Shown in pieces: positions 3,762 to 20,517 of a DNA stretch of 64,000 nucleotides. Source of the stretch: Candidatus Omnitrophota bacterium (GTDB lineage: Bacteria > Omnitrophota > Gorgyraeia > Zapsychrales > JANLHA01). A program made the position numbers and the translations under genes. Under the pieces are notes generated by a model. It searched no databases, was not told the origin of the DNA, and saw only the letters and a list, made by a program, of their open reading frames with translations. Every line of letters starts with the position of its first letter. Position 1 is the stretch's first letter. The stretch covers positions 1,754,662 to 1,818,661 of the forward strand of contig OY759724.1 in the NCBI GenBank assembly GCA_963662715.1, written 5' to 3'.

Positions 3762-3770
3762 CTAAGTTTA

Positions 3771-4563: not shown

Positions 4564-4679
4564 TTATTAATGCATAACAAGTCATCCATGAAAACAGTCA
4601 TCTGGTCAAGCATAAAATAGAAAGGCCAAATCATCCATTCGCGCTATATTCCCCAAAAGGACTTATGTAATGACCCTAG

Positions 4680-5447
4680 TTAAGCAAGGATTTTTTTGTG
4701 TAGATCGAGTTCTTTGTTAATCCATCTTTTGTAAAACTCTTCAGGCGTAGCGAAGAATAATGCCTGATGAGGGAAATCGGTGTTGTAATCGTTGATCCAA
4801 CGCTTGAAGTCATCTTGAAGATCAAATGGGTTGTCCCATTCATTGATCCAAATGAAATCTTCTTTGATTCTGCGGATGACGCGTTCGGTGTCAGCATTGC
4901 CTTTGGGGTTGGACCAGGTTGAGAAGATCTGCTTGATGCCGGCCAGTGAACAATTAAGCCTGAAGCGCCCGCTGGTGGGCTGACAGCCATTGTCCGAGAT
5001 CAGGTGCAGGTCATGATTCAGTGTGTCTTTGATGCCGTTTGGGAATCGGTTGTTGATGGCCATTTCCAGGGCATCCAGCCAGTCATCAGTCTTTGACTGG
5101 ATGTTGAGGCTATAGCCGATAATTTCTTTGGTATACCAGTCTAGGACGATGGTCAGATAGAACCAGCCCCAGGTCGCCAGTTTGATTTTTGTCATATCGA
5201 TACCCCAGAATTGATTGGGGTGAGAAGCTCGTGGTTTCCGGCGGAGGTTGCCACGCTTGGCCTTCAAGCGATCGTTGGGTTGAACCGTTAATTGATTTTC
5301 TTGCATGAGGCGTTGGACACAATTTTTGCCAATTTTGTAATGTTTACGGTTGTTTAAATAGGCCCAGACTGAACGGTATCCCCAGAGGGGATGTTGCTTT
5401 TTAATTTGTCGGATTTTGACTAAATGTTTTTGGTCTTGTTCGATACG
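4680..5447 (-). pseudogene. IS3 orfB of the outer copy, separated from its own orfA by the inner insertion
   Basis: Identical to orfB at 5466-6257 but lacking the first ~6 codons, which continue at 6602 onward. Confidence 0.7.
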
Positions 5448-5465
5448 CTTTTGTAATGACCCTAG

Positions 5466-6257
5466 TTAAGCAAGGATTTTTTTGTGTAGATCGAGTTCTT
5501 TGTTAATCCATCTTTTGTAAAACTCTTCAGGCGTAGCGAAGAATAATGCCTGATGAGGGAAATCGGTGTTGTAATCGTTGATCCAACGCTTGAAGTCATC
5601 TTGAAGATCAAATGGGTTGTCCCATTCATTGATCCAAATGAAATCTTCTTTGATTCTGCGGATGACGCGTTCGGTGTCAGCATTGCCTTTGGGGTTGGAC
5701 CAGGTTGAGAAGATCTGCTTGATGCCGGCCAGTGAACAATTAAGCCTGAAGCGCCCGCTGGTGGGCTGACAGCCATTGTCCGAGATCAGGTGCAGGTCAT
5801 GATTCAGTGTGTCTTTGATGCCGTTTGGGAATCGGTTGTTGATGGCCATTTCCAGGGCATCCAGCCAGTCATCAGTCTTTGACTGGATGTTGAGGCTATA
5901 GCCGATAATTTCTTTGGTATACCAGTCTAGGACGATGGTCAGATAGAACCAGCCCCAGGTCGCCAGTTTGATTTTTGTCATATCGATACCCCAGAATTGA
6001 TTGGGGTGAGAAGCTCGTGGTTTCCGGCGGAGGTTGCCACGCTTGGCCTTCAAGCGATCGTTGGGTTGAACCGTTAATTGATTTTCTTGCATGAGGCGTT
6101 GGACACAATTTTTGCCAATTTTGTAATGTTTACGGTTGTTTAAATAGGCCCAGACTGAACGGTATCCCCAGAGGGGATGTTGCTTTTTAATTTGTCGGAT
6201 TTTGACTAAATGTTTTTGGTCTTGTTCGATACGCTTTAGAGAACGGCGTCTTTTCAT
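5466..6257 (-). CDS. IS3 family transposase OrfB (DDE integrase core)
   Basis: 263 aa. Matches the rve-type DDE region (WGIDMTKIK...LISDNGCQ...). Overlaps orfA by 4 bp. Confidence 0.85.
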   Translation of the reverse strand: MKRRRSLKRIEQDQKHLVKIRQIKKQHPLWGYRSVWAYLNNRKHYKIGKNCVQRLMQENQLTVQPNDRLKAKRGNLRRKPRASHPNQFWGIDMTKIKLATWGWFYLTIVLDWYTKEIIGYSLNIQSKTDDWLDALEMAINNRFPNGIKDTLNHDLHLISDNGCQPTSGRFRLNCSLAGIKQIFSTWSNPKGNADTERVIRRIKEDFIWINEWDNPFDLQDDFKRWINDYNTDFPHQALFFATPEEFYKRWINKELDLHKKILA

Positions 6258-6559
6258 AACTCGTACTCGTTTTTTTTTAGTTCAACGGTCAAGTCGCCGA
6301 TGATGCGTTTGAGTTTGGCGTTTTCTTTTTCAAGACGTTGCTCTTTCTGGGACTGTTGTTTGATGTCAAAGGCCATATGGCATTCTTTGAGGAACTGGTC
6401 GCGCCATTTGTAATATTGGGTTTGGCCAATTTGGTATTTGTTACAAAGTTTACTGATGTCGATTTTCCCGCTGAGGCCTTCAAGCACGATTTGGGTCTTT
6501 TGTTGGCTGGTCCATTGGCGTTTTTTCATGGGAATTGGGCTCCTTTCCTTGGAACTCAA
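6254..6559 (-). CDS. IS3 family transposase OrfA (HTH)
   Basis: 101 aa. HTH followed by a leucine-zipper-like C-terminus, typical of IS3 OrfA. Confidence 0.85.
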   Translation of the reverse strand: MSSKERSPIPMKKRQWTSQQKTQIVLEGLSGKIDISKLCNKYQIGQTQYYKWRDQFLKECHMAFDIKQQSQKEQRLEKENAKLKRIIGDLTVELKKNEYEL

Positions 6560-6621
6560 TTCTACACCATTTGTTTAAATTTGTTAACTAGGGTCACTAT
6601 ACTTTAGAGAACGGCGTCTTT

Positions 6622-6927
6622 TCATAACTCGTACTCGTTTTTTTTTAGTTCAACGGTCAAGTCGCCGATGATGCGTTTGAGTTTGGCGTTTTCTTTTTCA
6701 AGACGTTGCTCTTTCTGGGACTGTTGTTTGATGTCAAAGGCCATATGGCATTCTTTGAGGAACTGGTCGCGCCATTTGTAATATTGGGTTTGGCCAATTT
6801 GGTATTTGTTACAAAGTTTACTGATGTCGATTTTCCCGCTGAGGCCTTCAAGCACGATTTGGGTCTTTTGTTGGCTGGTCCATTGGCGTTTTTTCATGGG
6901 AATTGGGCTCCTTTCCTTGGAACTCAA
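6622..6927 (-). CDS. IS3 family transposase OrfA (outer copy)
   Basis: Identical to the OrfA at 6254-6559. Confidence 0.8.
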   Translation of the reverse strand: MSSKERSPIPMKKRQWTSQQKTQIVLEGLSGKIDISKLCNKYQIGQTQYYKWRDQFLKECHMAFDIKQQSQKEQRLEKENAKLKRIIGDLTVELKKNEYEL

Positions 6928-7057
6928 TTCTACACCATTTGTTTAAATTTGTTAACTAGGGTCACTATACTTATGCGCACAATAGCGTATTATGACAGGG
7001 CGTGCCAATCACTACAACGGCCTTAAATATGCCAGAGTTGTTAACAGCATCACCCAT

Positions 7058-8110
7058 TTATACTGACCGATATTTATACTCACAGTTGTTTTTCAAAACA
7101 GCAAAAACAGATTTTAACAGCTTATGAGCAACAGCAACTATAGCGACACCGTAATCTTTTTTAGTTCGAATCTTCTGAAAATGAGTTTGTAAATATATAT
7201 CACGGCGCACAGCGGTTTGAGCCGCTTCGACAAAAGCAGTGCGTAAGTATTTATTGCCATCTTTAGTAATAGGGCCTGAATAATAGCTTTGACCTGATTG
7301 ATGGACACGAGGAACAATGCCGGCGTAACGGGCAAGTTTATGCGCATTCTTAAAGCGGGAGATGTCACCGATTTCAGCCAGGATGACATGAGCAAGAATA
7401 ACCCCTATACCAGGGACAGTGTAGAGTAACCGAGCCTTAGAATCGACTTTGATGTTCAGACGGAGACGAGAATCGATTTTGTAAATATGCCGGGAGAGAA
7501 TATCGATAAAGGAGAGATAATCGGCAATCATGGAAGAATAAGGTTGCCGTAAGGATAATTGATTTAAGAAGAGTTTGCCGGAAACACCGAAGAGGTCGCT
7601 GAAAGAATGCTGAATACCCTGATAATCAAGGATAGCATGAATACGATTTTTGAGGCTAGTGCGAATGGCGATCAAACGGTGGCGATACCGCATCAAAGCA
7701 CGAGCATCACGATGAAAGCGGGAAACACGGTAAGCTTTGGGCAAGAGATCGGCTCTCAAGAGGTCAGCTAAAACAGAAGCAGAGATTTTATCGGTTTTAA
7801 TGCGTTGTTCGGCAATAGCCTTAGTTCGCGCGGTATGAGCGAGAGAAACATCTAAGCCGGCCTCTTCAAGCAAGTCACCGAGCCAAAGGTCAAAGCCAGA
7901 GGCTTCCAGTGCGACAGAAGAGTTATGAGGAAGGGCTTTAAAATAATTTTTCATAGCATCTTTCTGGAAGTGATATAATTTTGTTTGATCGATGCGGTTG
8001 CCATTCTGATCTTTAACGACAACATACGAATACTTTTTGTGTTGATCGATTCCGATGTAATACATACGTGCCTCCTTTCTGGAAGGTTGTGGTTTTTGGC
8101 TTAAAATCAT
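7058..8110 (-). CDS. IS110 family transposase (DEDD), copy 2
   Basis: Identical to the protein at 1915-2967. Confidence 0.9.
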   Translation of the reverse strand: MILSQKPQPSRKEARMYYIGIDQHKKYSYVVVKDQNGNRIDQTKLYHFQKDAMKNYFKALPHNSSVALEASGFDLWLGDLLEEAGLDVSLAHTARTKAIAEQRIKTDKISASVLADLLRADLLPKAYRVSRFHRDARALMRYRHRLIAIRTSLKNRIHAILDYQGIQHSFSDLFGVSGKLFLNQLSLRQPYSSMIADYLSFIDILSRHIYKIDSRLRLNIKVDSKARLLYTVPGIGVILAHVILAEIGDISRFKNAHKLARYAGIVPRVHQSGQSYYSGPITKDGNKYLRTAFVEAAQTAVRRDIYLQTHFQKIRTKKDYGVAIVAVAHKLLKSVFAVLKNNCEYKYRSV

Positions 8111-8143
8111 TATACGCCTTCCAGAGGCACGTTTTCATACTAT

Positions 8144-8207
8144 CACTACAGCGGAGCCCCTCGCCACCTTCGGCAGACTCGGGACCCCGCTGAGTTCGTT
8201 GTTGGCC
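8144..8207 (+). repeat. integron attC site, right portion (left 9 bp at 4576-4584; split by IS110 copy 2)
   Basis: cactacagcggagcccctcgccaccttcggcagactcgggaccccgctgagttcGTTGTTGGCC. Confidence 0.7.
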
Positions 8208-8210
8208 TAA

Positions 8211-8948
8211 ATGGAGAATATCATGGTTGAAGATGTGGTCGTAGAACCGATGACAGAGGAATCCATCCTGTGGCGTTGTCTTCATGGTGGGCCGATTGTG
8301 CTCGACACTATTGATCAATCCCCTCTTGGAGGCTCGATACCGTGGGTGTGCTATCGGGATCGAAACACCTCACTCTTGGTGAAACTCACCAGAACCTATG
8401 GAGCTTGCGCTATCTTAGCACGCGATGGCGAGCAGATTGTAGGCCACCTTCGTTTCTATCCCAAGTTTGTCTGTGACAAGGAGGGGGCAGGTGGTCTTTG
8501 CCTTCAGCAAGATTCTCCTACAGGTCCAATTGAAGACTTTGCCGACAGCAACTTTCCAGAACCTATACAGATAGAAGACAAGACACTTGTCGTTCATTGC
8601 CTTATGACAGGAAGCTCCCAGCAGAAAGAGAATCCGTACCAGCGGGAGGGCATCGGCACACGCATGGTCAAAGCTTTGATTGAGTGGGCCAGAGTAAACA
8701 GCTGGGAACGAATTGAGGCGAACTCCTTTGAGGACCTTTCCATTATTTACGATACTACAGGAAGTGCTGGCCATACATTCTGGGAGAAATTGGGATTTCA
8801 CCTTGTTGATCGGCATCCACACCCGGAGCTGCAGGATCGTAGCCAGTTCGGCGGGTTTATCAAGACGCTCGAAGAACAGGCAGAGACTATCGGAATTCCC
8901 GTTGAGCGAGCAAGAGATCGACTCGTTATGCGTCTCGATCTGTTATGA
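8211..8948 (+). CDS. GNAT family N-acetyltransferase (cassette)
   Basis: Acetyl-CoA binding-like motif QREGIGTRMVKALIEWAR and C-terminal GFHLVD. 245 aa. Confidence 0.6.
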   Translation: MENIMVEDVVVEPMTEESILWRCLHGGPIVLDTIDQSPLGGSIPWVCYRDRNTSLLVKLTRTYGACAILARDGEQIVGHLRFYPKFVCDKEGAGGLCLQQDSPTGPIEDFADSNFPEPIQIEDKTLVVHCLMTGSSQQKENPYQREGIGTRMVKALIEWARVNSWERIEANSFEDLSIIYDTTGSAGHTFWEKLGFHLVDRHPHPELQDRSQFGGFIKTLEEQAETIGIPVERARDRLVMRLDLL

Positions 8949-8962
8949 TATAAACTGGATAT

Positions 8963-9031
8963 GCCAACAACGGGCTTGACAAGGAAGCGCGAAAAAGGCA
9001 GCCGCGCTCCTGTCAGCCCGAGCGTTGTGCG
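8963..9031 (+). repeat. integron attC site
   Basis: Begins TGCCAACaacgggc and ends cccgagcGTTGTGC. Palindromic arms gcgcgaaaaaggcagccgcgc. Confidence 0.55.
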
Positions 9032-9039
9032 GTAAGATA

Positions 9040-9282
9040 ATGAAAATGAAGAATATCATCAATAAACTTCTTGGCCCCAAATGTGCAAAATGCAAGAAAG
9101 CAGCACTTAAATTATTTGAATCCCCATTCACGGGAGAAACATTATTTCAAGCTCATAAATGTCCACAATGTGGTTCATTATATTGTGATGATTGTTATCC
9201 GTCTCTGCCTTGGACATCATATCCGATGGGATATTCTAAATGTCCAGATTGTGATTTACAGCTAGAAAGATATTTAAAATAG
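9040..9282 (+). CDS. zinc-ribbon hypothetical protein (cassette)
   Basis: CAKC...CPQC...CDDC...CPDC cysteine pairs. 80 aa. Confidence 0.4.
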   Translation: MKMKNIINKLLGPKCAKCKKAALKLFESPFTGETLFQAHKCPQCGSLYCDDCYPSLPWTSYPMGYSKCPDCDLQLERYLK

Positions 9283-9338
9283 AAGAAATAGATAAAAAAT
9301 AAAAGAATATAGATTAAGCAAACTTTGCGCACAACAAG

Positions 9339-9416
9339 TCACTACAGCGAGGGCGCTCGGCCACCTTTGGCAGGCTCGGGACCCCGATGAGTTCCTTGCG
9401 TTAGACGAAAAAATAT
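9339..9416 (+). repeat. integron attC site (intact member of the family targeted by IS110)
   Basis: acAACAAGTCACTACAGCGagggcgctcggccacctttggcaggctcgggaccccgatgagttccttgcGTTAGAC. Confidence 0.75.
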
Positions 9417-9439
9417 TATAATTATGATATAATGACCTT

Positions 9440-9628
9440 ATGAAAATTAATAAACAAATAGTAACATTAAAGAAAATCACTCAACAGGACGACTGTTTTG
9501 TCGACACTTCTCCTCAAGAAAGGGTATTATTTGTTTGGGAGCTAACGGCAGAATTGTGGTCTTTGAAAGGCAAGGAACATGTTGAACGAAGACTACAAAG
9601 AGATATTACAAATCTTATTAAAAAATGA
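9440..9628 (+). CDS. small hypothetical protein, possible partner of the downstream nucleotidyltransferase
   Basis: 62-aa ORF overlapping the next gene's start. Sits in the same cassette. Confidence 0.3.
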   Translation: MKINKQIVTLKKITQQDDCFVDTSPQERVLFVWELTAELWSLKGKEHVERRLQRDITNLIKK

Positions 9629-10022
9629 TGTTCAATTTCTTGTTGTGGGCGCATATGCAATGGCTGCTTATGGATATCCTAGGGCAACAGGTGATTTTGA
9701 TATTTGGGTAGAATCCTCAATAGAAAATTCAGAAAATATTTATAAATCATTGCTTGAATTTGGAACTCCATTGACAGGAATAACTAAAGATACATTTTCA
9801 GAAGATGGGCTTGTTTTTCAGATCGGAGTTGCGCCCAGAAGAATAGATATTATAACAGGTATTGATGGGGTTAATTTTGAGGATGCGTTTAAGGATAAAG
9901 AAGGTATTGAGGTCGAGGGTTTAAAATTGCCTTTTATATCGAAAGAGAACTTAATAAAAAATAAAAAGGCTACAGGCAGAGAAAAAGATAGATTAGATAT
10001 TAAATATTTAGAAGATAAATAA
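9579..10022 (+). CDS. nucleotidyltransferase-fold protein (MNT/DUF6036-like)
   Basis: GAYAMAAYG...GDFDIW motif (G-S/x then DxD) of minimal nucleotidyltransferases. 147 aa. Confidence 0.5.
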   Translation: MLNEDYKEILQILLKNDVQFLVVGAYAMAAYGYPRATGDFDIWVESSIENSENIYKSLLEFGTPLTGITKDTFSEDGLVFQIGVAPRRIDIITGIDGVNFEDAFKDKEGIEVEGLKLPFISKENLIKNKKATGREKDRLDIKYLEDK

Positions 10023-10024
10023 AT

Positions 10025-10102
10025 CGTCTAACAAGGCAATTAAGCGGCACAAGCTCGCACCTTTTGGCGCTCGCTTACGCCGTTTATTTTTTTGCGTTAC
10101 TC
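10025..10102 (+). repeat. integron attC site
   Basis: Begins cgTCTAACaagg and ends tttgcGTTACTC. Arms gcacaagctcgcacc/ggcgctcgcttacgcc. Confidence 0.55.
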
Positions 10103-10127
10103 TGAGCGTATTAATCGGGAAAATACT

Positions 10128-10604
10128 ATGGCTTCAACTGATAATGAATTTGTGATTGGTGCAACAATAGTTAAGTATGGCCTTTTTGAGTCTGCCGTTG
10201 CGGAGAAAAAGAAGAATGAAGGACTTCCATACTCATCATACGAAGAAAAAGCAACAATAATGCATTTACAAACCACAGATATTATTAAGGGAAAGATCGG
10301 GATAGAATTTGGTATATCATATGTTGTTAATTCAGTAAATCAGATTCATCTTATGGCTGAGAATCAATCTATTGAAATAAAAACAGTAGTGATATATCCG
10401 AGTCCGGGTATCAGAGATGTTGAAAATAATAAGATTTATCATGATTCAATAACATATAGAGATGTTCCTATGGATGCTGAAGTGTATGAAGGTTATTTTA
10501 TCGGTGGTGAGACAGATATTGTGGCCGGAGAATGGACATTTCAAATATGGCATAACGATCACAAGTTGGCAGAAAAAATATTTGATATTACAAAAGATAA
10601 ATAA
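10128..10604 (+). CDS. hypothetical cassette protein
   Basis: 158-aa ORF from an internal ATG after the attC. No recognisable motifs. Confidence 0.4.
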   Translation: MASTDNEFVIGATIVKYGLFESAVAEKKKNEGLPYSSYEEKATIMHLQTTDIIKGKIGIEFGISYVVNSVNQIHLMAENQSIEIKTVVIYPSPGIRDVENNKIYHDSITYRDVPMDAEVYEGYFIGGETDIVAGEWTFQIWHNDHKLAEKIFDITKDK

Positions 10605-10610
10605 GACAAC

Positions 10611-10677
10611 ATCTAACAAGTCACTCTGGCGGCACCGTTGGCAGGCTCGGGACCCCGCTGAGTTCGTTGCGTTGGAT
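10611..10677 (+). repeat. integron attC site
   Basis: ATCTAACAAGTCACTctggcggcaccgttggcaggctcgggaccccgctgagttcgttgcGTTGGAT. Confidence 0.75.
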
Positions 10678-10688
10678 TGGAAAAGAGA

Positions 10689-11171
10689 ATGTATTGTCCA
10701 GATGATGGTTTGAAATTAAATCGACTTGAAAGAAATGGCATTGAAATTTATGAATGCACCGAATGCGGGGGGCTTTGGACTCCCGTCAGAGCGATTGATT
10801 ATAAAAATACTTTAATTGACCATAAAGGTAGCAGTGATTTGTTGTGCCTTTCCTGTCAAGAACCAATGAATGAAAAAATATACAGAAGTTATCAAATAAT
10901 TGTATGTGAAGACTGTCAATATGCCTGGATTGGCGGGACAATCATTAAATCCTTATTTGTTAAAACTGATAAAGCAGAAATAAGAGCAAATGATAATTGT
11001 TTAACAGATGCTTTGGGGGCATTTAAAGAAGGACTGCCTCAATGGGTGATGGAGATCTTTGTGAATTTGCCGGATAAAGAAACATTGAATGCTCTGGCAG
11101 AAATTGCAGGAGAAGCGGGAGAAACGGTCGTGGAATTTTTTGCGTTTTTGTTTTCTGATATATCTAATTAA
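10689..11171 (+). CDS. zinc-ribbon hypothetical protein (cassette)
   Basis: CPDDG..CTECGG and CLSC...CEDC cysteine pairs. ATG at 10689. The TAA stop overlaps the attC start TAACAAG. Confidence 0.45.
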   Translation: MYCPDDGLKLNRLERNGIEIYECTECGGLWTPVRAIDYKNTLIDHKGSSDLLCLSCQEPMNEKIYRSYQIIVCEDCQYAWIGGTIIKSLFVKTDKAEIRANDNCLTDALGAFKEGLPQWVMEIFVNLPDKETLNALAEIAGEAGETVVEFFAFLFSDISN

Positions 11172-11257
11172 CAAGACATCCAACCATTCCCTGCGGCGTG
11201 GGCCCGGCCCCCTGCGGCTTCGTCAGGGGCCGATGAGTTCCTGGCGCTATGTTTAAA
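11167..11257 (+). repeat. integron attC site
   Basis: Begins atTAACAAGacatcc and ends cgtcaggggccgatgagttcctggcgctatGTTTAAA. Same family as the attCs at 13821 and 16066. Confidence 0.65.
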
Positions 11258-11265
11258 ATTCAAAA

Positions 11266-11643
11266 ATGACTAGCTTTAATAGAACCAAATGGATTTTGTT
11301 AATATCAATCGCGACCTTATTTGTAGGTGTCGTGCCTGTATATTTGAACAGAAGCATTGCTTCAAAATATCCTGTGTGGGAATCGGGTTGTTTTCAATAT
11401 CAAAATAACCACAAAATTGAGCCCGTATCTGAATACTGCGATTTACCAGCAGGCGAGAGGCGTTTATTATTGTTGGGAGAATTAATAAAAAGAGAGTGTT
11501 CCGAGTTATTATTTTACGCATATATATTTTTTGGTATAGCCGCTGTGGTTTTAAGGAAATTTAAATTTTTCTTTTTCCCGGTAATAATACATTTAATTCT
11601 TTGCTTGGTGATTTTATTAATATTTGGAAACATAGGAATTTGA
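11266..11643 (+). CDS. hypothetical membrane protein (cassette)
   Basis: Three hydrophobic helices. 125 aa. Confidence 0.4.
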   Translation: MTSFNRTKWILLISIATLFVGVVPVYLNRSIASKYPVWESGCFQYQNNHKIEPVSEYCDLPAGERRLLLLGELIKRECSELLFYAYIFFGIAAVVLRKFKFFFFPVIIHLILCLVILLIFGNIGI

Positions 11644-11660
11644 TTTTAGAAAAATTAAAA

Positions 11661-11721
11661 ACATAACAACTCCCTGTGGCGGCCCTTGCTCCGGTGGCTG
11701 CGCCGTTGAGTATGGTTTGTT
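11661..11721 (+). repeat. integron attC site
   Basis: Begins ACATAACaactccctgtggcggccc and ends ggctgcgccgttgagtatgGTTTGTT. Confidence 0.55.
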
Positions 11722-11731
11722 GTGCCAGAAA

Positions 11732-12355
11732 ATGAAAGAAAAAACATTTAAGCTTTTAACATTTTCCTCGCTTGCTATAACAGTCATCTCTTCTGCATTT
11801 TTGATCCATCGCATAAGATATGCTTTCTGGGGGATCAAAATAATTCCCATCCGAAATATCCTGAATGATAAAGAAATCCTTTTTATTAATTGCTGTCTTG
11901 ATTTTATCCTTTCTTTGCCTTTGTCGATGCTTGTCTCTTATTTTCTCTTGCTGAAAATTGATTCCTTAATTCCTGAAACTTGTCAGGATTTTCTTAAGCG
12001 TTTTCAGCGGCATACTCCTTACGGCGTAGTTAAGAGAAACGACCCGGAACTATTTAAAATTGCCGGTTCAAAATCTCCAGCCAGAGGTGTGCTTGAAATA
12101 TCGGCCGGATTAATTGTTTTGGCTGTGTTTATCGCGTGTGAAGCTTTTGCTTACTACGCAAGATATGAGATCCTCGGGATACCTTTTATTTCAGCCGGAG
12201 CCGGTGTGCAGCCAGCAATCAATTCATTAATCAATTTTATAATATCGATACCATTTTTGGGTGTAGTGGCTTTTTTGTTGATAAAACTTATTAAGTTGTT
12301 CGAAAAAATTTTAGGGGAAAGTATTATTGATTTTTATTCAACCATATTACGATAA
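11732..12355 (+). CDS. hypothetical polytopic membrane protein (cassette)
   Basis: Multiple hydrophobic segments. Internal ATG at 11732 used as start. Confidence 0.4.
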   Translation: MKEKTFKLLTFSSLAITVISSAFLIHRIRYAFWGIKIIPIRNILNDKEILFINCCLDFILSLPLSMLVSYFLLLKIDSLIPETCQDFLKRFQRHTPYGVVKRNDPELFKIAGSKSPARGVLEISAGLIVLAVFIACEAFAYYARYEILGIPFISAGAGVQPAINSLINFIISIPFLGVVAFLLIKLIKLFEKILGESIIDFYSTILR

Positions 12356-12357
12356 AA

Positions 12358-12431
12358 GCGCAACATCAGGTTCAGCATGGCGCGGGGAAACTTCGCCGCC
12401 TGCGCATGGCCGCTGAGTTGTCGCGTTACGT
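12358..12431 (+). repeat. integron attC site
   Basis: GCGCAACatcaggttcagcatggcgcggggaaacttcgccgcctgcgcatggccgctgagttgtcgcGTTACGT. Confidence 0.7.
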
Positions 12432-12472
12432 GAAAGATGGAATCTCCCCGTTAAAAAATTGAGGTCACCAGA

Positions 12473-12742
12473 ATGAGAAAAAAAGAAAGCAATCCAAAAG
12501 AGGACAAACTTAAAGGGACTGTAAATGCTGGGTACAAGATCATTGCCGTTAAAGAGGCCCCGATGAAGTACCCCATCCCACTTGTCCCTGCGGAAAGTAT
12601 TGTCTTAGCAAAACGCGTGAACAATTCGGCCCCAACCAATTACGTGGTATGGGAGTATGTTGGCCATGGCGAATTCAGGTCTGGTATTTACGAAGATAAT
12701 AGGGCGGAAGCAGAGAATATTTTTAATTCACAAACAAAATAA
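12473..12742 (+). CDS. hypothetical cassette protein
   Basis: 89-aa ORF with a GGTCACC-like RBS region upstream. Confidence 0.4.
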   Translation: MRKKESNPKEDKLKGTVNAGYKIIAVKEAPMKYPIPLVPAESIVLAKRVNNSAPTNYVVWEYVGHGEFRSGIYEDNRAEAENIFNSQTK

Positions 12743-12796
12743 GACTGTATGTATCTCAAATATTCGTTGAACATGTGGAATAAATATAACAAAAAC

Positions 12797-12863
12797 ACGC
12801 AACAACCTGCTCCTGCAGCCACTGCTCCGGCCTGCGCACGGCTGCTGAGTTCTTACGTTAGGA
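12797..12863 (+). repeat. integron attC site
   Basis: ACGCAACaacctgctcctgcagccactgctccggcctgcgcacggctgctgagttcttacGTTAGGA. Confidence 0.7.
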
Positions 12864-12905
12864 GAAGAGATTGAGTGTATATCGGAATTTAATGATGCAA
12901 GTGGC

Positions 12906-13262
12906 ATGTGCACGTTCACTGTCACCGGTAAGGTCCGTAGTCCCGAGGATGGGTATGAACTTCAATGCCGCGCAAACCAGGTCTCTATCCAGCATGAATG
13001 CCGTTTCTTTCTCATCGACATGAGACAGGCCGAGATAATAACTAAAACGATGCCTGCATTCGAAACGGCAAAAGTGAAGGATGAGTTCCGCCAGGAACTC
13101 CGAAAGCATAAGACGGCAGTGCTTTATTCAAGACTTGCAGAACATGAGCGCTTCTTTGAAACTGTTGCGGTGAACAGTGGTTTCACGCTCAAAGTGTTTG
13201 ACAGGTATGATGAAGCCGTTGAGTGGCTTGCAAAAGATTGTATCTCGGTCAACAGTGTGTGA
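12906..13262 (+). CDS. hypothetical protein, paralog of 13913-14296 (STAS/SpoIIAA-like?)
   Basis: Shares a C-terminal block with 13913-14296: ...AVLYS....E..FFE.VAVN.GF.L.VFD..DE...WL. Confidence 0.45.
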   Translation: MCTFTVTGKVRSPEDGYELQCRANQVSIQHECRFFLIDMRQAEIITKTMPAFETAKVKDEFRQELRKHKTAVLYSRLAEHERFFETVAVNSGFTLKVFDRYDEAVEWLAKDCISVNSV

Positions 13263-13269
13263 AAAAAAC

Positions 13270-13331
13270 GCCTCACAAAATTTGTGCTGGAACGCCGGCA
13301 AGCCGGCTTCGGTGAGCCGCGCCGTTTTGGA
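13270..13331 (+). repeat. probable integron attC site (degenerate)
   Basis: Begins cctCACAAAATTTGTGctgg and ends ccgcgccGTTTTGG. Arms gccggcaagccggc. Confidence 0.45.
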
Positions 13332-13405
13332 ATAAAGACGGAAAAGATGCATAAAAATAAAATTTTGCGGACGAAGTCCAGAATAAGACAAGAAAGGGAC
13401 ATGTT

Positions 13406-13792
13406 ATGACAAAAATACCGGAAGAAGTTAAAGTCGCAATAGATAAAACAAGCCCTATATGTGTGGCCACAGTGAATAATGAATATGTGCCGAATATAAT
13501 ATATGTCACTTTTTTAAAATATATAAATGACACGACAGTGGTTATAGCAGATAATAAACTTGTAAAAACAAAAAATAATATATTATCTAATTCCAACCTT
13601 TCCTTTGTTGTCCTTGATCCTGAAACAAAAAAGTCATATCAATTAAAAGGGGAAACGGAATATATACAAGAAGGGGAGAAATATCAAGATGTTTTTAACT
13701 GGGTGCAAGAAAGAAGACCGGATCTCCGCCCCAAAGGTGCTTTGTATGTAACTATCAACGAAATATTCTCCGGAGACAAGAAAATAGCCTGA
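13406..13792 (+). CDS. pyridoxamine 5'-phosphate oxidase-like (split-barrel, FMN-binding family) protein
   Basis: N-terminal pattern ...SPICVATVNNEYVPNIIYVTF...VVIADN...K... resembles the PNPOx-like/general stress protein 26 family. 128 aa. Confidence 0.45.
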   Translation: MTKIPEEVKVAIDKTSPICVATVNNEYVPNIIYVTFLKYINDTTVVIADNKLVKTKNNILSNSNLSFVVLDPETKKSYQLKGETEYIQEGEKYQDVFNWVQERRPDLRPKGALYVTINEIFSGDKKIA

Positions 13793-13820
13793 GAATTGGC
13801 TTGAAGTTTTGAAATTGGAT

Positions 13821-13904
13821 CAAAACACATGAGAAGTCGCTCTGTCGTCCCTGTCTCGTCACGTTGCGGCTTCGTCAGGGGCCGATGAGCTCCTTGCGTT
13901 AAGA
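13821..13904 (+). repeat. integron attC site
   Basis: Ends ...ggcttcgtcaggggccgatgagctccttgcGTTAAGA. Family of the attC at 11167. Confidence 0.6.
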
Positions 13905-13912
13905 GAATTAGC

Positions 13913-14296
13913 ATGCACTACACATATGAGTTAGACAACGACAGTGGCATTTGTATCGTTCGCGTGACGGACACGTTCAAGCGTCCGGAGGATGCTGCGG
14001 AGATGCAGCAACTTGTGTGCAAGCTCTATGAAGAGACCGGGTGTGGGGCTTTTCTGTTTGACATGCGGAGGGTCGATGTCGTTGCCAGTGTTTTATTCAC
14101 ATATGATACCGTCGTGTTCGAAGCTGCAAAGTTACATGTGCTTCGGAAGCTGAAGGCAGCTGTTTTGTATTCGGAAGTTACCGAAGAGGAATGTTTTTTT
14201 GAAAATGTGGCGGTGAATCGCGGGTTCCCGTTGCGTGTTTTCGACAGTCTTGACGATTCGCTTGACTGGTTAAGCGGGAAGGGTGGGCGCACCTAA
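13913..14296 (+). CDS. hypothetical protein, paralog of 12906-13262
   Basis: Shares ~40% of positions with 12906-13262 over the C-terminal 60 aa (AVLYSEVTEEECFFENVAVNRGFPLRVFDSLDDSLDWL). Confidence 0.45.
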   Translation: MHYTYELDNDSGICIVRVTDTFKRPEDAAEMQQLVCKLYEETGCGAFLFDMRRVDVVASVLFTYDTVVFEAAKLHVLRKLKAAVLYSEVTEEECFFENVAVNRGFPLRVFDSLDDSLDWLSGKGGRT

Positions 14297-14300
14297 AATA

Positions 14301-14382
14301 TCCAACAACTCATTCCAATGTGGCGTTCCACCTGGCGGTGTCGGTAGCCTTAGGCCCCCGCCGGGTGCTTTGCGCGTAGAGG
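14301..14382 (+). repeat. integron attC site (variant core GTAGAGG)
   Basis: Begins aTCCAACAactcattcc. Arms ccacctggcggtgtcggtagccttaggcccccgccgggtg. Ends ctttgcgcGTAGAGG. Confidence 0.5.
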
Positions 14383-14387
14383 GAATT

Positions 14388-14669
14388 ATGAAAAGCATAA
14401 AGATTGTGGGCACATCTATTGTGATATTGACTGTTCTTGGCGGTGTTTGTGTGGCTCAGACAGAATGCGAGAAAGCAAAAGGGGAGATAGTAAAAATAAA
14501 AGAATGTGACGGGTCTGAAAGCGAATGGTGTGTCATTTCAGAGAAAGAACAATGTTATGCGGATCAGGTGAAGAACGGCAGATGCACTGCCGGGAAATAT
14601 TCAGAAAAGTATAAAGGGATTGTAGGAATCAGCCCCCGGGTGCTTTGTGATAACTTTGATGGTCAATAA
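14388..14669 (+). CDS. secreted Cys-rich hypothetical protein
   Basis: Signal-peptide-like N-terminus (MKSIKIVGTSIVILTVLGGVCVA) and 8 cysteines. Internal ATG used as start. Confidence 0.4.
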   Translation: MKSIKIVGTSIVILTVLGGVCVAQTECEKAKGEIVKIKECDGSESEWCVISEKEQCYADQVKNGRCTAGKYSEKYKGIVGISPRVLCDNFDGQ

Positions 14670-14686
14670 AATAAGGGGAGAAGACA

Positions 14687-14929
14687 ATGGATAAAATTTG
14701 TATTGCCTGCGGAATGCCGATGAAAAACAGGGAAGATTATGCCGCCGGAGATATTAACAAAAGTTATTGTAAATTTTGCTGTCGTTCAGACGGTTCAATG
14801 CAAAGTTATGATGAAAAAATGGATTCCATGAGCAATTTTATAAGTAGAACAAAAAAAATAAATTATGAAGCTGCGAGAGACCTGGCCAGGAAGGTGATGG
14901 CTGATCTTCCGGCGTGGAAGGATCATTGA
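14687..14929 (+). CDS. zinc-ribbon hypothetical protein (same cassette as 14388-14669)
   Basis: CIACGMP...CKFCC motif. Only 17 bp from the upstream ORF, with no attC between them. Confidence 0.4.
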   Translation: MDKICIACGMPMKNREDYAAGDINKSYCKFCCRSDGSMQSYDEKMDSMSNFISRTKKINYEAARDLARKVMADLPAWKDH

Positions 14930-14957
14930 GGCCCCGCGGAGTCCCTTGCGTCAGATA
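14930..14957 (+). repeat. truncated or degenerate attC (right half only)
   Basis: gaggccccgcggagtcccttgcGTCAGAT matches the right arm of the attC at 15552-15644 (gaggcccgcggaggtccttgcGTTAGGA). No recognisable left arm. Confidence 0.45.
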
Positions 14958-14962
14958 ACAGA

Positions 14963-15556
14963 ATGAAAAGAATATTAACTGTAATGCTCGCGACATGTTT
15001 GATTTCCTGCCACACAAACAAATTATATGAAAAATATCCGGAAAGAACGCCCAGAGATCCCGCATGGGCAAAAGCAATTGAATTGGAGGGCGTTCCTAAT
15101 TTTTATAAAGTGTCGGATGACCTTTATCGCAGCGCGCAGCCTTCTGCCGAAGGGATGAGAAATTTAGAAAAGTTGGGGATAAAAACTGTCGTTAATCTAA
15201 GAGCATTTCATTCTGACAGCCGCAAGCTTGAGGGAACTCATCTGCAATATAAACGAATATACATGAAGAACTGGCATCCTGAAATGGAAGATATCGCCAG
15301 ATTTTTTAAGGTAATGTTGGATTCCAGGAATACTCCCGTGCTCATTCATTGCGAACAGGGCGCTGACCGGACAGGAATGATTGCCGCCATGTACCGTGTT
15401 CTTGTTCAAGGATGGTCACAGGAGGAAGCTTTGGAAGAAATGAAGTGGGGCGGTTTTGGAGCGCATAAAATATGGATACACTTGCCCCCTTGGATTAAGA
15501 ATTTGGATATCGATGAATTAAAAGAAGAAATTCAAGAAGAAATCAAAGATGATTAA
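14963..15556 (+). CDS. protein-tyrosine / dual-specificity phosphatase-like lipoprotein (CX5R)
   Basis: Lipobox LISC. Active-site signature HCEQGADRTG (HCx5R). 197 aa. Confidence 0.6.
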   Translation: MKRILTVMLATCLISCHTNKLYEKYPERTPRDPAWAKAIELEGVPNFYKVSDDLYRSAQPSAEGMRNLEKLGIKTVVNLRAFHSDSRKLEGTHLQYKRIYMKNWHPEMEDIARFFKVMLDSRNTPVLIHCEQGADRTGMIAAMYRVLVQGWSQEEALEEMKWGGFGAHKIWIHLPPWIKNLDIDELKEEIQEEIKDD

Positions 15557-15644
15557 CAGCTGACAAATCCCTGCCGCGGGTCAGCCTGCACCGCCGACGC
15601 CACCGTTGGCAGCCTCGAGGCCCGCGGAGGTCCTTGCGTTAGGA
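15552..15644 (+). repeat. integron attC site
   Basis: ATTAACAgctgacaaatccctgccgcgggtcagcctgcaccgccgacgccaccgttggcagcctcgaggcccgcggaggtccttgcGTTAGGA. Confidence 0.65.
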
Positions 15645-15647
15645 GAG

Positions 15648-16064
15648 ATGATGAAAAGAATTTTTATATTAATATTATTCATTGCGACTTCATGGATTGT
15701 CCCGGCGCAGGGAAGTGTCTTCCCGGGAATAAAAGAAGAAGATGCTGCGAAATTGGCAGAAGGCCTGTCGGAAATTTCGAATGATGCAACGTACGGATTT
15801 GACTCTTCCAATCCCATTCAAGTGGGAGGAGGCCCTTCTAATGAAAGAAAATATTTGATGATGATATGTGGCCCTGAAGGGCAAGACTTGAGCTTCTCGA
15901 GAATTGGCAGTTTTGGCGGCTTTGAAGTTATTGTCGATGGGTATATGGTTTCCTATGACGGGATCGAGGAGCCGGTTATTCTTTATGTTGATATGTATAA
16001 TTACGTTAATCCCAAAGCGCCAAAAGGTTTCCGTATCAAGGATAAATATAAAAAAGTAAAATAA
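15648..16064 (+). CDS. secreted hypothetical protein (last cassette)
   Basis: Signal peptide MMKRIFILILFIATSWIVPAQG. Internal ATG at 15648. Confidence 0.4.
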   Translation: MMKRIFILILFIATSWIVPAQGSVFPGIKEEDAAKLAEGLSEISNDATYGFDSSNPIQVGGGPSNERKYLMMICGPEGQDLSFSRIGSFGGFEVIVDGYMVSYDGIEEPVILYVDMYNYVNPKAPKGFRIKDKYKKVK

Positions 16065-16065
16065 T

Positions 16066-16145
16066 GACTCCTAAGGAGGCGCTTTGTCGTCCCCGCCTCG
16101 CCACAGTGCGGTTTCGGCAGGGGCCGATGAGGACATCTGTTTTAA
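16066..16145 (+). repeat. integron attC site (last in window)
   Basis: ...cgctttgtcgtccccgcctcgccacagtgcggtttcggcaggggccgatgaggacatctGTTTTAA. Family of the attCs at 11167 and 13821. Confidence 0.55.
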
Positions 16146-16157
16146 CTTCGAGGCTTT

Positions 16158-17417
16158 ATGAAGATTCCCGGAAAAAAGTTTCTTTTTGACATTCTTACCT
16201 TTTGTCTGGTTATAACACTGCTTGAATTGTTTCTTACCATAGTGTGTTTCTTCTCCCCCATGGTCAACGTGCTTTTAACCATGGATTCCATCTCGCCCAG
16301 CGTCCCGGATGAACGCCTCGGGCATCGTCCTAATCCTGCCCTGCCGGGGCACGACGATAAAGGATTCCGCAACGCCTCAGTGCCGGACGAGGCTAAAATA
16401 GTAGCCCTGGGGGATTCGCAGACTTATGGCGACGGTGTCTTTTGGCAGGATGCCTGGCCCAGCAAGCTGGAAGAATTATCCGGAGACACAGTCTACAGCA
16501 TGGCCTTCGGGGGCTATGGGCCCGCCCACAGTCTTATCCTGTGGGAAGAGGCGGCCCTTTTCAACCCGCGGATATATATAGAGGCCTTCTACTCCGGCAA
16601 TGATTTGTTTGATTCCTTTAACTTGGTTTACAATTTAGGACAGCTGCCAGAGTTGAAGACAGCAAATAAAGAAATAGAGTTAGAGATAAGAGAGATGGAA
16701 AAGGCGGAATCCGTCGCGCAACATGTTTCGAACCTGTATAAAATGGGGAAAAATAAAAAAGGAACCCTGGGGTATTATTTATCCCTGGGCGATGATTTTT
16801 TTTCGTCCCATTCGAATATATACGTATTGCTGCGCCGGGCTAAGCGCGAATTGTTCCGGCTTATTGAATCGGGGAAGACTGAATCGGATTGGGGTAAGGC
16901 AAGGACATTTGCCGAAGAGAATTCCGATTACTGTCAGGCTTTTGAGGACGGGCCGTTTAAGACAATCTTTACACCGGACTACCGGCTTACGGCCCTCGAC
17001 TTAGAAGACAGGCGGATTGCCGAAGGGTATCGTATTTCCCTTGAGGCTATAAAGCGTATGAACGAACTTGCTTTGCAGCAGGAAAGACAGTTTTTGGTCG
17101 TTCTCATCCCCACGAAAGAATTGGTTTTTAAAGAGCTTATACGGAATCCTTCTGAAAAACACCTCGCCCTGATCAGGAATGAGGAGCTGTTATGGAAAAA
17201 GGCGAAGGAGTTTTTCCGGGCGCATGACATTGATTTCGTGGACGGGTTGGCGGCCTTCCGGGAGATGCTCAGCCAGGGCATTCAACCCTACCTGGTGTCG
17301 CATGACGGACATCCCAACGAATACGGTCATTACGCTATTGCGGGATTGATTTATACAAAGCTGCTAAAAAACCGCGGAGATGGCGAGGCTGGCATCCGCG
17401 GGTTTCAAGATGAGTGA
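16158..17417 (+). CDS. membrane-anchored SGNH/GDSL-type hydrolase or acyltransferase (AlgX/AlgJ-like)
   Basis: N-terminal TM helix. SGNH blocks: GDSQTYG (I), GGYG (II), SGNDLFD (III), DGHPNEYGH (V). Confidence 0.5.
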   Translation: MKIPGKKFLFDILTFCLVITLLELFLTIVCFFSPMVNVLLTMDSISPSVPDERLGHRPNPALPGHDDKGFRNASVPDEAKIVALGDSQTYGDGVFWQDAWPSKLEELSGDTVYSMAFGGYGPAHSLILWEEAALFNPRIYIEAFYSGNDLFDSFNLVYNLGQLPELKTANKEIELEIREMEKAESVAQHVSNLYKMGKNKKGTLGYYLSLGDDFFSSHSNIYVLLRRAKRELFRLIESGKTESDWGKARTFAEENSDYCQAFEDGPFKTIFTPDYRLTALDLEDRRIAEGYRISLEAIKRMNELALQQERQFLVVLIPTKELVFKELIRNPSEKHLALIRNEELLWKKAKEFFRAHDIDFVDGLAAFREMLSQGIQPYLVSHDGHPNEYGHYAIAGLIYTKLLKNRGDGEAGIRGFQDE

Positions 17418-17964: not shown

Positions 17965-18202
17965 GCTTGCCAATCCGTGAGGACGGGCTTTTCGTCGTTC
18001 TTATCCTCCCTCTGTGCCCCTTCGGAGCGCTATTTCGTTTTTAAAAACAAGAATACATTAAGAAATGTCAGTTTTTGGGCGAGTCTGGCCATTGACAGTT
18101 CTTTAAGAGAAGACAATAATAGCCGTAATGTGCTTTCCCCGAAACTGAAACCGCCTTTTAATGAATTCTAATGATTTGAAACGTTTCAAGGGAGGAGTAT
18201 TT

Positions 18203-19243
18203 ATGAATTCATTTGGAAAGATATTTGAAACTTATGAAGTCCCGGAAAATGTGGGAGGATATCTGGAATGGGTTTCAGGTATTCTTTATATCAATGCATC
18301 AAAACAGCAGTGGAAAGAATACCTGAACGTCCAGGCGGGTGAGACACGTTCAGCCTCTCAACGTGAGTTGTGTCAAACCGTCACCCATGAAACCTATCAT
18401 TTCCTGCAGATCGCCATGACCGGCTATCTTTACAGGTTTGCGTGCAGGCTTTTTACAGGTTTCCGGTCACTTTTGTCCCCGCTATTGAGCAGTTCAAAAA
18501 TAGAGCAGCTGCTCTGCGATCCGCCGCCGCTTCCGCAGAATCTTATCGAACTGGTGAGAGCTTTGGACAGCCCTGGCCCGGAGGGGCTGACTGTCCGCGA
18601 TATCGTGGAATCCTCGGCCTACCTGTACGAACACTTAATGCATTATCCGGATATGAACAAATCCTTTTATGACGAAATTTTAGCTTCGTCTCATATCGGC
18701 CCGGAGTATAAAAAGGCATATTCTATGGCGGAGGATATCCTTGGCCCGCATGTCATGGACACATTTCTGACGGCATCTTTTATTTCTCTTTGTTTTGAGC
18801 AACCTGCCGGATGTTTTTTAGATGTCCTGAAGGCGATATCTGAAGCGGGGCCCGAAGAATTGGCATCAGGCTGTGATTTCAGCCGGATATTTTCGATCAC
18901 ACAGGAAGTCTCCCAAAGGCATAAGCCTTTAGGGCCGTCCGAAGAAGTCGCGGCAGGGGGGATGTCTCATCCTGTCTATACGCTGTCTTTGGAACTTATG
19001 AACGAGTCTTTGGGTCGGGAGCAGGCCATCCTGATGTTGCTTGCCCCCCGGAGCATGAACTTGTACGGTGCCGTTCTGGCCGTGCGGCCGGCCTTGTTTA
19101 AAGACCCCGCCCTTTGGGTCCCTGAAAATTTCAGGCAGAAAATGCCGGAACAGGATGATGCTAAACTTTTTATTGTCGCTCTTCTGGGGGCTTTTGCCCT
19201 CACCCTGCTTAACAAAGGGCAGGACCTTTCAAGATATAGATAA
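18203..19243 (+). CDS. HExxH-motif protein, putative zinc metallopeptidase
   Basis: THETYHFLQ (HExxH). GGGAGGAG RBS 8 bp before the ATG at 18203. Confidence 0.45.
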   Translation: MNSFGKIFETYEVPENVGGYLEWVSGILYINASKQQWKEYLNVQAGETRSASQRELCQTVTHETYHFLQIAMTGYLYRFACRLFTGFRSLLSPLLSSSKIEQLLCDPPPLPQNLIELVRALDSPGPEGLTVRDIVESSAYLYEHLMHYPDMNKSFYDEILASSHIGPEYKKAYSMAEDILGPHVMDTFLTASFISLCFEQPAGCFLDVLKAISEAGPEELASGCDFSRIFSITQEVSQRHKPLGPSEEVAAGGMSHPVYTLSLELMNESLGREQAILMLLAPRSMNLYGAVLAVRPALFKDPALWVPENFRQKMPEQDDAKLFIVALLGAFALTLLNKGQDLSRYR

Positions 19244-19332
19244 ACCGGGCACGAAGAAGTCTGCCCCGCCAGACCGGGGGCTGGCATGAAAAATTTTAAC
19301 GTTGATGACAAATAAAAACAAAGGAGGGGGAT

Positions 19333-20172
19333 ATGTCATTTTTAGGTCTTTGTGATGGGGATCCTTTAGTCACGGTTCTGAAGGATTTGTTCGGCTCAAA
19401 TATCGTCAAGGTCCCGGAAGAACGCATCAAACCTTTGTGCGTGGTTGCCAGTTCCGGCCGCCGGACAGCTTTCCGCGGAAAGTTATCCCCTTTGTTGGTC
19501 GGTAATCCGGAGTTGAATATTCAGATAAGTTCATCCAGAATGGCGGATTTGTCCGGTAAAAGTTCAAGGAAAGTCAACCTTGCTTTAGGGCTGGAAATAC
19601 TTGAGGGTTTTTTAAAAGGCTTTGGAATCCCGTCTGCCGGAATAAATTTAAAACTTCAAGGGGCTGAAAAAGTTTCGTTCCATTTTAAGAATGTTGTAAG
19701 AGATTTCCTTGATGTCAATGTCCTGGGAAAAATGTTGAGCGAGCAAATAGTTGATGAAGACAGTCCTGCGGCAAGTATATTTTTCGGAGAAACGGCTTAT
19801 GCCTTTTTGGTCATTGATTCTGTGATAACCAGCAGTGATTTTGCGATAAACCTTGAAAAGGGGCATGATCATAGTTTTAAATTAGATGTCCCGGCCATTC
19901 AGACTCTGGTTGCGCAAGCCAATGCCGGGATGGAGGTCAACACGACTACGGGCTATGACTTGATATTTAAAGGTCCGGAACAGCTGGCTTTTGCTTTTTC
20001 TTGCGTTAAATTGTATTTAGATCAGGCTGGGAGAATTACCTCCATGCCGCCGGCCGGTGAGATCCCGACCTTAAGGGTTTATTTCGGGAGAACCAAAGAA
20101 CATAAAATTGATTATTCTCCGGATAGGGTTCTGTTGAACCCTGAGCCAGCCATGCTTGCCTGGGATGAATAA
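19333..20172 (+). CDS. gasdermin-like (pore-forming N-domain-like) protein, candidate bacterial gasdermin
   Basis: 279 aa. By eye, ordered motifs resemble the gasdermin N-domain. IKPLCVVASSGRR matches QPYCLVVRKPSS. KVSFHFKNV matches RSFHFYD. KLDVPAIQTLV matches LSVDPNTWQTLL. N-proximal Cys7 present. Short C-terminal tail after residue ~245. Confidence 0.45.
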   Translation: MSFLGLCDGDPLVTVLKDLFGSNIVKVPEERIKPLCVVASSGRRTAFRGKLSPLLVGNPELNIQISSSRMADLSGKSSRKVNLALGLEILEGFLKGFGIPSAGINLKLQGAEKVSFHFKNVVRDFLDVNVLGKMLSEQIVDEDSPAASIFFGETAYAFLVIDSVITSSDFAINLEKGHDHSFKLDVPAIQTLVAQANAGMEVNTTTGYDLIFKGPEQLAFAFSCVKLYLDQAGRITSMPPAGEIPTLRVYFGRTKEHKIDYSPDRVLLNPEPAMLAWDE

Positions 20173-20517
20173 ACCCTGTCGGGCATTTTAGCCTTTGTCC
20201 GGGATATAAGGTCTCCCCGGGATATCCCGGAAACCAGGCAGACAGCCGTTGGGATCTTCAGGTTCTGCGCGGGTTTTCCGTTATTTTTATGGCCTGAAAC
20301 ATTTTGTCGGCAGCGGAAGGCCCTTATCCGCAGCAAGCCCTCCGACATTGAATCTTAAATTTACCTCTTACCAGAAGACCTTGTGCAGGGGGAGTTCCCT
20401 GAGTTTTTAACGCCCCGGAATATCCTCCGGGGAATAGTGTTTGTTATTGGTCGGCTTTCTGGTATATTAATTCTGTCTGTTATAAAAAAGGAAAATAAGA
20501 AACAAAAGGAGGAAATT

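Follow-up and report, generated by a model that had tools for sequence, protein, structure and literature searches.

The gene pair and its features

The window analyzed here is a stretch of 64,000 nucleotides of contig OY759724.1 from a Candidatus Omnitrophota bacterium, and its center of interest is a pair of adjacent genes on the plus strand. The first codes for a protein of 346 amino acids (aa) with an HExxH motif and the second, judged by its profile matches, for a 279-aa bacterial gasdermin (bGSDM). The original prediction, made from the DNA alone, had seen in them a gasdermin-like pore former next to a possible zinc metallopeptidase, just outside the end of an integron. Both open reading frames (ORFs) were confirmed; the gap between them measures 89 bp and not the 37 bp first given. 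The features on which the argument rests are as follows (strand is indicated where assigned).

17974 to 17996, terminator-like hairpin after the preceding gene and before the pair
18092 to 18120, plus strand, sigma-70-like promoter (TTGACA-17-AATAAT, 11/12 matches) upstream of the HExxH gene
18190 to 18197, plus strand, ribosome-binding site GGGAGGAG of the HExxH gene, 5 nt ahead of ATG 18203, read from the sequence
18203 to 19243, plus strand, HExxH gene, 346 aa
18386 to 18400, plus strand, HExxH motif H62-E63-T-Y-H66 (HETYH), invariant, in predicted helix 51-72
18608 to 18610, plus strand, codon of E136 in the RDIVES motif, nearly invariant, in predicted helix 131-147
19244 to 19332, plus strand, intergenic spacer of 89 bp, without terminator and without attC
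ca. 19321 to 19329, plus strand, ribosome-binding site AAGGAGGGGG of the bGSDM gene, within the spacer
19333 to 20172, plus strand, bGSDM gene, 279 aa
19351 to 19353, plus strand, codon of Cys7, invariant in an alignment of 24 relatives
20041 to 20169, plus strand, C-terminal tail (residues 237 to 279, ca. 43 aa), past the structurally aligned domain, which ends at ca. residue 236
20269 to 20291, plus strand, terminator-like hairpin followed by a T-run, 3' of the gasdermin gene

The downstream gene codes for a bacterial gasdermin

On the strength of homology searches, the ORF at 19333 to 20172 is a genuine bacterial gasdermin and thus belongs to a known family of suicide pore-formers. The PADLOC bGSDM profile matched residues 6 to 244 with an E value of 3.9e-66, and the NCBIfam equivalog model NF051890 (prok_gasdermin) gave 192.1 bits against a cutoff of 100, with all 203 profile positions covered. 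Along similar lines, the solved bGSDM of Vitiosangium (PDB 7n51 and 8sl0) matched residues 5 to 236 (E value of ca. 2e-27), while two more bGSDM structures matched more weakly. From this homology to solved bGSDMs we infer a gasdermin N-domain fold. The resemblance to that domain, first proposed from a few short motifs, is real and strong, and in the profile search suggested at the time the NCBIfam model scored well above its cutoff. Our local Pfam copy returned no family for this ORF, and this could be taken in favor of a chance resemblance of motifs in a protein that is no gasdermin at all. However, the local Pfam-A copy lacks PF26164 (Bact_GSDM), and we therefore consider the miss a false negative; PF26164 is precomputed on the identical database protein (P0012) and on 70 homologues. 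Together with the PADLOC, NCBIfam, and PDB matches, this refutes the chance resemblance, which has a negligible probability.

The N-proximal cysteine pointed out originally is Cys7, which also aligns with the cysteine of the "GLC" near the N terminus of the Vitiosangium bGSDM. Palmitoylation of an N-terminal cysteine in bGSDMs was described by Johnson et al. At the other end of the protein, the tail had been proposed as an inhibitory peptide of about 30 aa. Its length of ca. 43 aa is greater than that and falls inside the range of 17 to 67 aa spanned by bGSDM inhibitory peptides (PMC13475620), and a clade-specific pattern, ...ITSMPP-(variable, ca. 20 aa)-YSPDRVLL...WD, is kept among the 24 relatives. 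The segment YSPDRVLL...WD is likely the inhibitory peptide, and the variable linker at ca. residues 242 to 260 is the probable cleavage region. A match to the Rfam small RNA (sRNA) RgsA on the minus strand, at 19535 to 19644, was treated as noise, since it lies inside the gasdermin coding sequence and its 26.9 bits are far under the gathering score of 88.4.

The upstream gene codes for a conserved HExxH protein

Two start codons are possible for the upstream gene, ATG 18161 and ATG 18203. We favor the latter because the ribosome-binding site GGGAGGAG lies 5 nt upstream of it and because the N termini of homologues align there. In an alignment of 115 family members, extending down to ca. 18% identity, residues H62, E63, H66, L196, and P201 were invariant, while W23, G26, Q69, E136, and Y169 were nearly so, and the resulting family signature can be written as THETxHFxQI...RxIxES...Y. 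Given the invariance of H62, E63, and H66 over such distances, the HExxH motif, already noted in the original prediction, is by its conservation far beyond chance. E136 is a candidate third metal ligand, and the pattern as a whole points to a catalytic metal site. An HExxH motif with a downstream glutamate (and a tyrosine) is the typical arrangement of gluzincin peptidases, and HExxH is also found in non-peptidase metalloenzymes. The conservation of HExxH, E136, and Y169 therefore suggests a zinc-dependent hydrolase; a zinc metallohydrolase is a plausible and well-motivated reading, from which we infer peptidase activity as a further step.

In spite of this conservation, we assign the protein to no known peptidase family. 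Pfam, NCBIfam, and PADLOC gave no match at an E value of ≤10, and sequence and profile searches of the PDB gave none either. The AlphaFold2 model, built on a deep alignment, was confident (predicted local distance difference test [pLDDT], 93.8; predicted template modeling score [pTM], 0.93) and mostly helical, with a small N-terminal beta-hairpin, the HExxH motif in the middle of helix 51-72 and E136 in the later helix 131-147. When this model was used in a structure search, the sole structurally coherent weak matches were gluzincins. Thus, the conserved HExxH, E136, and Y169 speak for the zinc metallopeptidase first envisaged, while the family and PDB profile matches are missing and the modeled fold, which had been suggested as a test for a zincin, has no significant similarity to a known zincin domain.

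The protein lacks a signal peptide and is therefore predicted to be cytoplasmic. Near its C terminus there is a hydrophobic helix, KLFIVALLGAFALTLLNKG (residues ca. 318 to 338; 19154 to 19219), with a Kyte-Doolittle mean of 1.7 over 19 residues. This helix may be buried, or it may serve as a membrane tail-anchor; in the latter case, the protein would sit at the gasdermin's site of action.

The HExxH family and its own partner domain

A word-indexed search with the HExxH protein found only 11 relatives, while an exhaustive profile search recovered 378 representatives, 116 of them at an E value of ≤1e-30. The family is thus widespread and previously unannotated. No relatives were recovered by tblastn from viral contigs, phages, or plasmids. 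A domain of ca. 180 aa recurs next to the HExxH domain, with the consensus ...RGxxxLxFPDxE...DPxVRxFLRxLxxxxPxLLYFL... and no match in Pfam. It is fused C-terminally in ca. 30 of 146 representatives (e.g., P0102, P0116, and P0129) and is encoded directly downstream of the HExxH gene in loci L004 (1088 to 1753) and L072 (5342 to 5827), that is, in the slot held by the gasdermin in the window; it was also found in L003 (3726 to 4370, minus strand). We considered whether this domain could be a cryptic gasdermin and rejected the idea (hhalign probability of 0.1%; no gasdermin fusion among the 146 representatives). Further contexts of the family included a C14 caspase with an alpha/beta-hydrolase (L003), a DUF433/PIN pair (L005), and a SPPY-motif methyltransferase (L073), so that, anecdotally, its neighborhoods are heterogeneous and defense-like.

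Organization of the pair

The two genes share the same strand, and no terminator was found in the 89-bp spacer, which is unstructured (fold z = -0.56). The terminator-like hairpins lie before and after the pair, and the promoter precedes the HExxH gene, although this promoter is a consensus match only, with 5 such sites in the region versus 4.5 expected by chance. By its layout, the pair looks like a two-gene operon. No C14, CHAT, S8, trypsin-type, or other recognized bGSDM protease is encoded within 5 kb, the only peptidase being the housekeeping LspA.

Upstream on the plus strand lies the cassette array of a chromosomal integron, with ca. 16 attC sites at 267 to 15646, found with a covariance model trained on 10 attC sites of the window, and with small ORFs between them. 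The sites display the attC architecture of R'' (e.g., ATCTAAC), paired L''/L' arms, and R' (GTTRRRY), and the final one, at 16055 to 16147, is degenerate. No credible attC was found past 16147, even in a focused covariance scan with filters off, and none at the 3' end of the HExxH gene, the bGSDM gene, or the pair. The pair therefore stands ca. 2 kb outside the recognizable array, as had been proposed, with no attC between both genes. That the two genes make up one integron cassette or two is ruled out, there being no attC within 2 kb. No integrase is visible within the window on the array side.

The genes near the pair code for a PTP-like phosphatase, a weak GDSL-like hydrolase, a hemerythrin, a cupin, LspA, and a methyltransferase. 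The GDSL-like gene (16158 to 17417) was considered as possible kin of the GDSL lipases found beside bGSDM relatives (see below), with which it shares no BLAST similarity.

Partners of related gasdermins

Partner turnover among the closest gasdermin relatives is high. The gasdermin of L014 (Chloroflexus) has a CHAT protein together with an amidase and an FtsZ-like protein, the partner in L084 is a CpXC-TPR-CHAT protein, and S8 proteases stand beside the gasdermin in L082 and L009. In L012 (4621 to 6582) and L013 (10149 to 12058), the gasdermin is followed by a patatin-like phospholipase and a papain-family (C1) peptidase; L082 also has a C1 peptidase (10 to 909) ca. 3 kb upstream of its gasdermin. 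Among the immediate neighbors surveyed (loci L009 to L063), C14 appeared in 12 of 60, and the recurrent non-protease neighbors were GDSL-like lipases (8/60), Amidase_2 (7/60), and FtsZ/tubulin-like proteins (3/60). Neither L007 nor L008, the genome loci with the two nearest gasdermin relatives, has a recognizable protease.

The closest parallel in layout comes from L081 and L083, whose gasdermins share 59% and 57% identity with that of the window. In both, a 395-aa M48/U49-like HExxH protein is encoded directly upstream of the gasdermin (L081, 3785 to 4972; L083, 3808 to 4995), 28 and 5 bp away, respectively, in the same arrangement as in the window. The L081 protein is above the Pfam M48 threshold (28.3 versus 20.3 bits) and has a precomputed U49 match, and the signature of these partners is AHEYxH...ELEAD. 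In L035 (Solirubrobacter), an M48/U49-like gene (ca. 10830 to 11994) follows the gasdermin. Some relatives of this M48/U49-like family carry TPR fusions (P0255 to P0258). These genes are probably the "Peptidase U49" class of Table S1 of Johnson et al., where U49 is listed beside 6 of 50 bGSDMs and a C1-like peptidase beside 2 of 50, although metalloproteases are not discussed in the main text of that study or in later papers. The original prediction had called a zinc metalloprotease encoded upstream of a bGSDM an undescribed configuration. This was overstated, because an HExxH-type partner, even directly upstream, is already catalogued; the novelty would lie in the family to which the protease belongs.

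Two Saprospiraceae/Bacteroidetes metagenome-assembled genomes have a DUF3810 protein with an HExxH motif encoded directly downstream of the gasdermin (L040, 10837 to 11940; L041, 10871 to 11971). The DUF3810 gene is flanked there by housekeeping genes (pyrophosphatase and aminotransferase), and the adjacency may be coincidental.

Proposed mechanism and alternatives

The reading that we prefer, with a probability of roughly 0.45, is that of a two-gene operon in which a metalloprotease of a new family frees the gasdermin from its inhibitory tail, leading to pores and cell death. The gasdermin would probably be held inactive by the C-terminal peptide of ca. 40 residues, as in characterized bGSDMs, and probably stabilized by lipidation of Cys7. 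A cue, most likely phage infection, would switch on the cytoplasmic HExxH protein, which, as a dedicated zinc-dependent protease, would cut the variable linker at ca. residues 242 to 260. The pore-forming domain thus released would form large membrane pores, with cell death and abortive infection as the outcome. In bGSDMs at large, a protease adjoins 43 of 50 members (Johnson et al.). The high partner turnover among the closest gasdermin relatives, with an HExxH peptidase gene directly upstream in L081 and L083, also counts in favor of this reading.

Several observations weigh against this proposal. We found no member of the HExxH family in 65 other gasdermin loci (61 from genomes and 4 metagenomic), and no gasdermin in ca. 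16 other loci of the HExxH family (14 distinct loci plus 2 gene tables without DNA, several of the contigs being short). The pairing is a single occurrence among the loci examined, and not even the nearest homologues share it: that of the HExxH protein (L001, 53% identical) has no gasdermin, and that of the gasdermin (L007, 63% identical) has no gene of the HExxH family. The recurrent partner of the family is another one, the ca. 180-aa domain, which is absent from the window. The GC content at third codon positions (GC3) differs modestly, the HExxH gene having 0.53, like housekeeping genes, and the gasdermin gene 0.45. The HExxH protein carries no sensor repeats (TPR, LRR, WD40, or NACHT) and resembles no solved peptidase significantly, either in sequence or in fold. 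The comparison of its family with the U49/M48-like gasdermin partners gave an hhalign probability of ca. 1%, with only a 9-column stretch around HExxH aligned, and E values of 0.04 to 0.05 in hmmsearch with filters off. With no Pfam match in addition, we rejected a remote homology between the two. The functional pairing originally proposed thus has in its favor the operon-like layout and the lack of another protease nearby, while the pairing itself is conserved in the loci of neither family.

Much of this would be expected if the gasdermin were an orphan and the HExxH gene a chance neighbor in the variable DNA that lies at the integron's distal end, with activation, if any, by a protease encoded elsewhere or by a non-proteolytic route. 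We take this to be a serious contender, if somewhat short of an even chance. A pairing unique to this genome among the loci examined, a HExxH family with its own recurrent partner and varied contexts, and a difference in GC3 all fit it. Orphan gasdermins are not rare, since Table S1 of Johnson et al. has 7 among 50 bGSDMs without a protease next to them, and L007 and L008 have no recognizable protease either. In addition, the surroundings are a run of unrelated small genes beside an integron array (among them those for the GDSL-like hydrolase, hemerythrin, cupin, and LspA), so that a chance juxtaposition would come about easily. However, chance accounts poorly for the tight same-strand layout, in which a promoter precedes and a terminator follows the pair and no terminator interrupts it, or for a neighbor with an invariant, catalytic-looking metallohydrolase motif when most bGSDMs adjoin a protease of their own. 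The recurrence of a directly upstream HExxH gene of another family in L081 and L083 argues in the same direction.

It is also conceivable, but improbable in our view, that the HExxH protein cooperates with the gasdermin in a role other than that of a protease, as a metal-dependent sensor, as a regulator or inhibitor, or as an enzyme with another substrate (e.g., lipid, nucleotide, or cell wall). A confident model (pLDDT of 93.8) without a significant match to a solved peptidase fold is consistent with such a role, as are the occurrence of HExxH in non-peptidase metalloenzymes and the amidases, FtsZ-like proteins, GDSL lipases, and patatins that flank related gasdermins. On the other hand, HExxH with a downstream glutamate and tyrosine is typical of gluzincin peptidases, gluzincins were the only structurally coherent, if weak, structural matches, and the characterized bGSDM systems are all activated by proteolysis.

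A broader version of the preferred reading would make the HExxH family a new class of regulated metalloproteases, each working in a conflict system on a partner encoded downstream; in this genome, the module would have been rewired to take a gasdermin as its substrate. This is doubtful, and we hold it to be rather unlikely. If true, the window would hold the first gasdermin governed by a zinc protease that is not of the U49/M48 type and would give a way into what the family as a whole does.

Implications

To our knowledge, all the gasdermin activations characterized so far in bacteria, fungi, and animals are by cysteine or serine proteases, and no pair of a bGSDM with a U49/M48-like protein has been characterized experimentally, the U49 neighbors having been tabulated in 2021. 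If a metalloprotease and a gasdermin proved to work together, gasdermin activation would therefore gain a new catalytic class, and the ease with which the gasdermin effector exchanges its trigger module would become apparent. The gasdermin itself is already captured by current models, and the candidate new element is the protease family of its partner. If the pairing were fortuitous, the locus would be one more orphan bGSDM of the kind that annotation models already recognize. The analysis has exposed a widespread unannotated family with an invariant metal-site motif, a confident fold without a solved match, and a recurrent partner domain, and the compact two-gene operon would be an easy experimental entry to it.

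Mobile elements in the cassette array

Two identical insertion sequence (IS) copies were found at 1826 to 3065 and 6969 to 8208, each with a 350-aa transposase ORF on the minus strand (1915 to 2967 and 7058 to 8110) and each adjoining an attC remnant (2976 to 3067 and 8119 to 8209). The element looks like an attC-targeting insertion sequence, a behavior known for elements of the IS1111/IS110 group. Between the two copies, an IS3-like region on the minus strand (4574 to 6901; ORFs at 4680 to 5306, 5466 to 6257, and 6254 to 6559) contains perfect internal duplications of 300 nt (4662 to 4961 with 5448 to 5747, and 6234 to 6533 with 6602 to 6901), which suggests nested or rearranged insertions, and has a 94-nt repeat in common with 1739 to 1832. 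Within the array there are also two small genes at 3845 to 4563, for proteins of 100 and 139 aa, that overlap by 4 bp and, judged by their sequence alone, look like a toxin-antitoxin pair.

Comparison with known systems

Among the bGSDM-protease operons of anti-phage defense and cell death, the bGSDM-CHAT operon of Runella zeae and the bGSDM-trypsin operon of Lysobacter (Johnson et al. 2021/2022) resemble the pair in the window in that a candidate protease encoded on the same strand adjoins the bGSDM. The pair also sits in a variable region rich in mobile elements, as the bGSDM-protease operons of Johnson et al. do. Unlike in Runella and Lysobacter, however, the neighbor in the window is not caspase-like, CHAT, subtilase, or trypsin-like and carries no repeat or NACHT sensor. 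None of the adjacent domains by which gasdermin defense is canonically recognized in PADLOC and by Johnson et al. (C14, CHAT, S8, trypsin-like, U49, or C1) was found beside the gasdermin in the window.

The closest solved relative of the window gasdermin is the bGSDM of Vitiosangium sp. (PDB 7N51 for the inactive form and 8SL0 for the pore). The tail of the window protein is longer and has the clade-specific ...ITSMPP...YSPDRVLL...WD, and in Vitiosangium the partner is a CHAT protease (Johnson et al., Table S1), unlike in the window. The pairs of a bGSDM with a U49/M48-like protein are alike in that an HExxH protein of ca. 350 to 400 aa adjoins the gasdermin, as in the window, but the signatures differ, with HEYxH...ELEAD in the U49/M48-like proteins versus THETxHFxQI...RxIxES...Y in the family described here.

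A different kind of parallel is Lit of the E. coli element e14 (MEROPS U49), a stand-alone cytoplasmic HExxH protease of abortive infection that is switched on by a phage product and kills the infected cell, its substrate being EF-Tu. Lit has no sequence kinship with the HExxH protein of the window (no Pfam U49 match) and cleaves EF-Tu, not a gasdermin, but it offers a concept for how such a protein could act.

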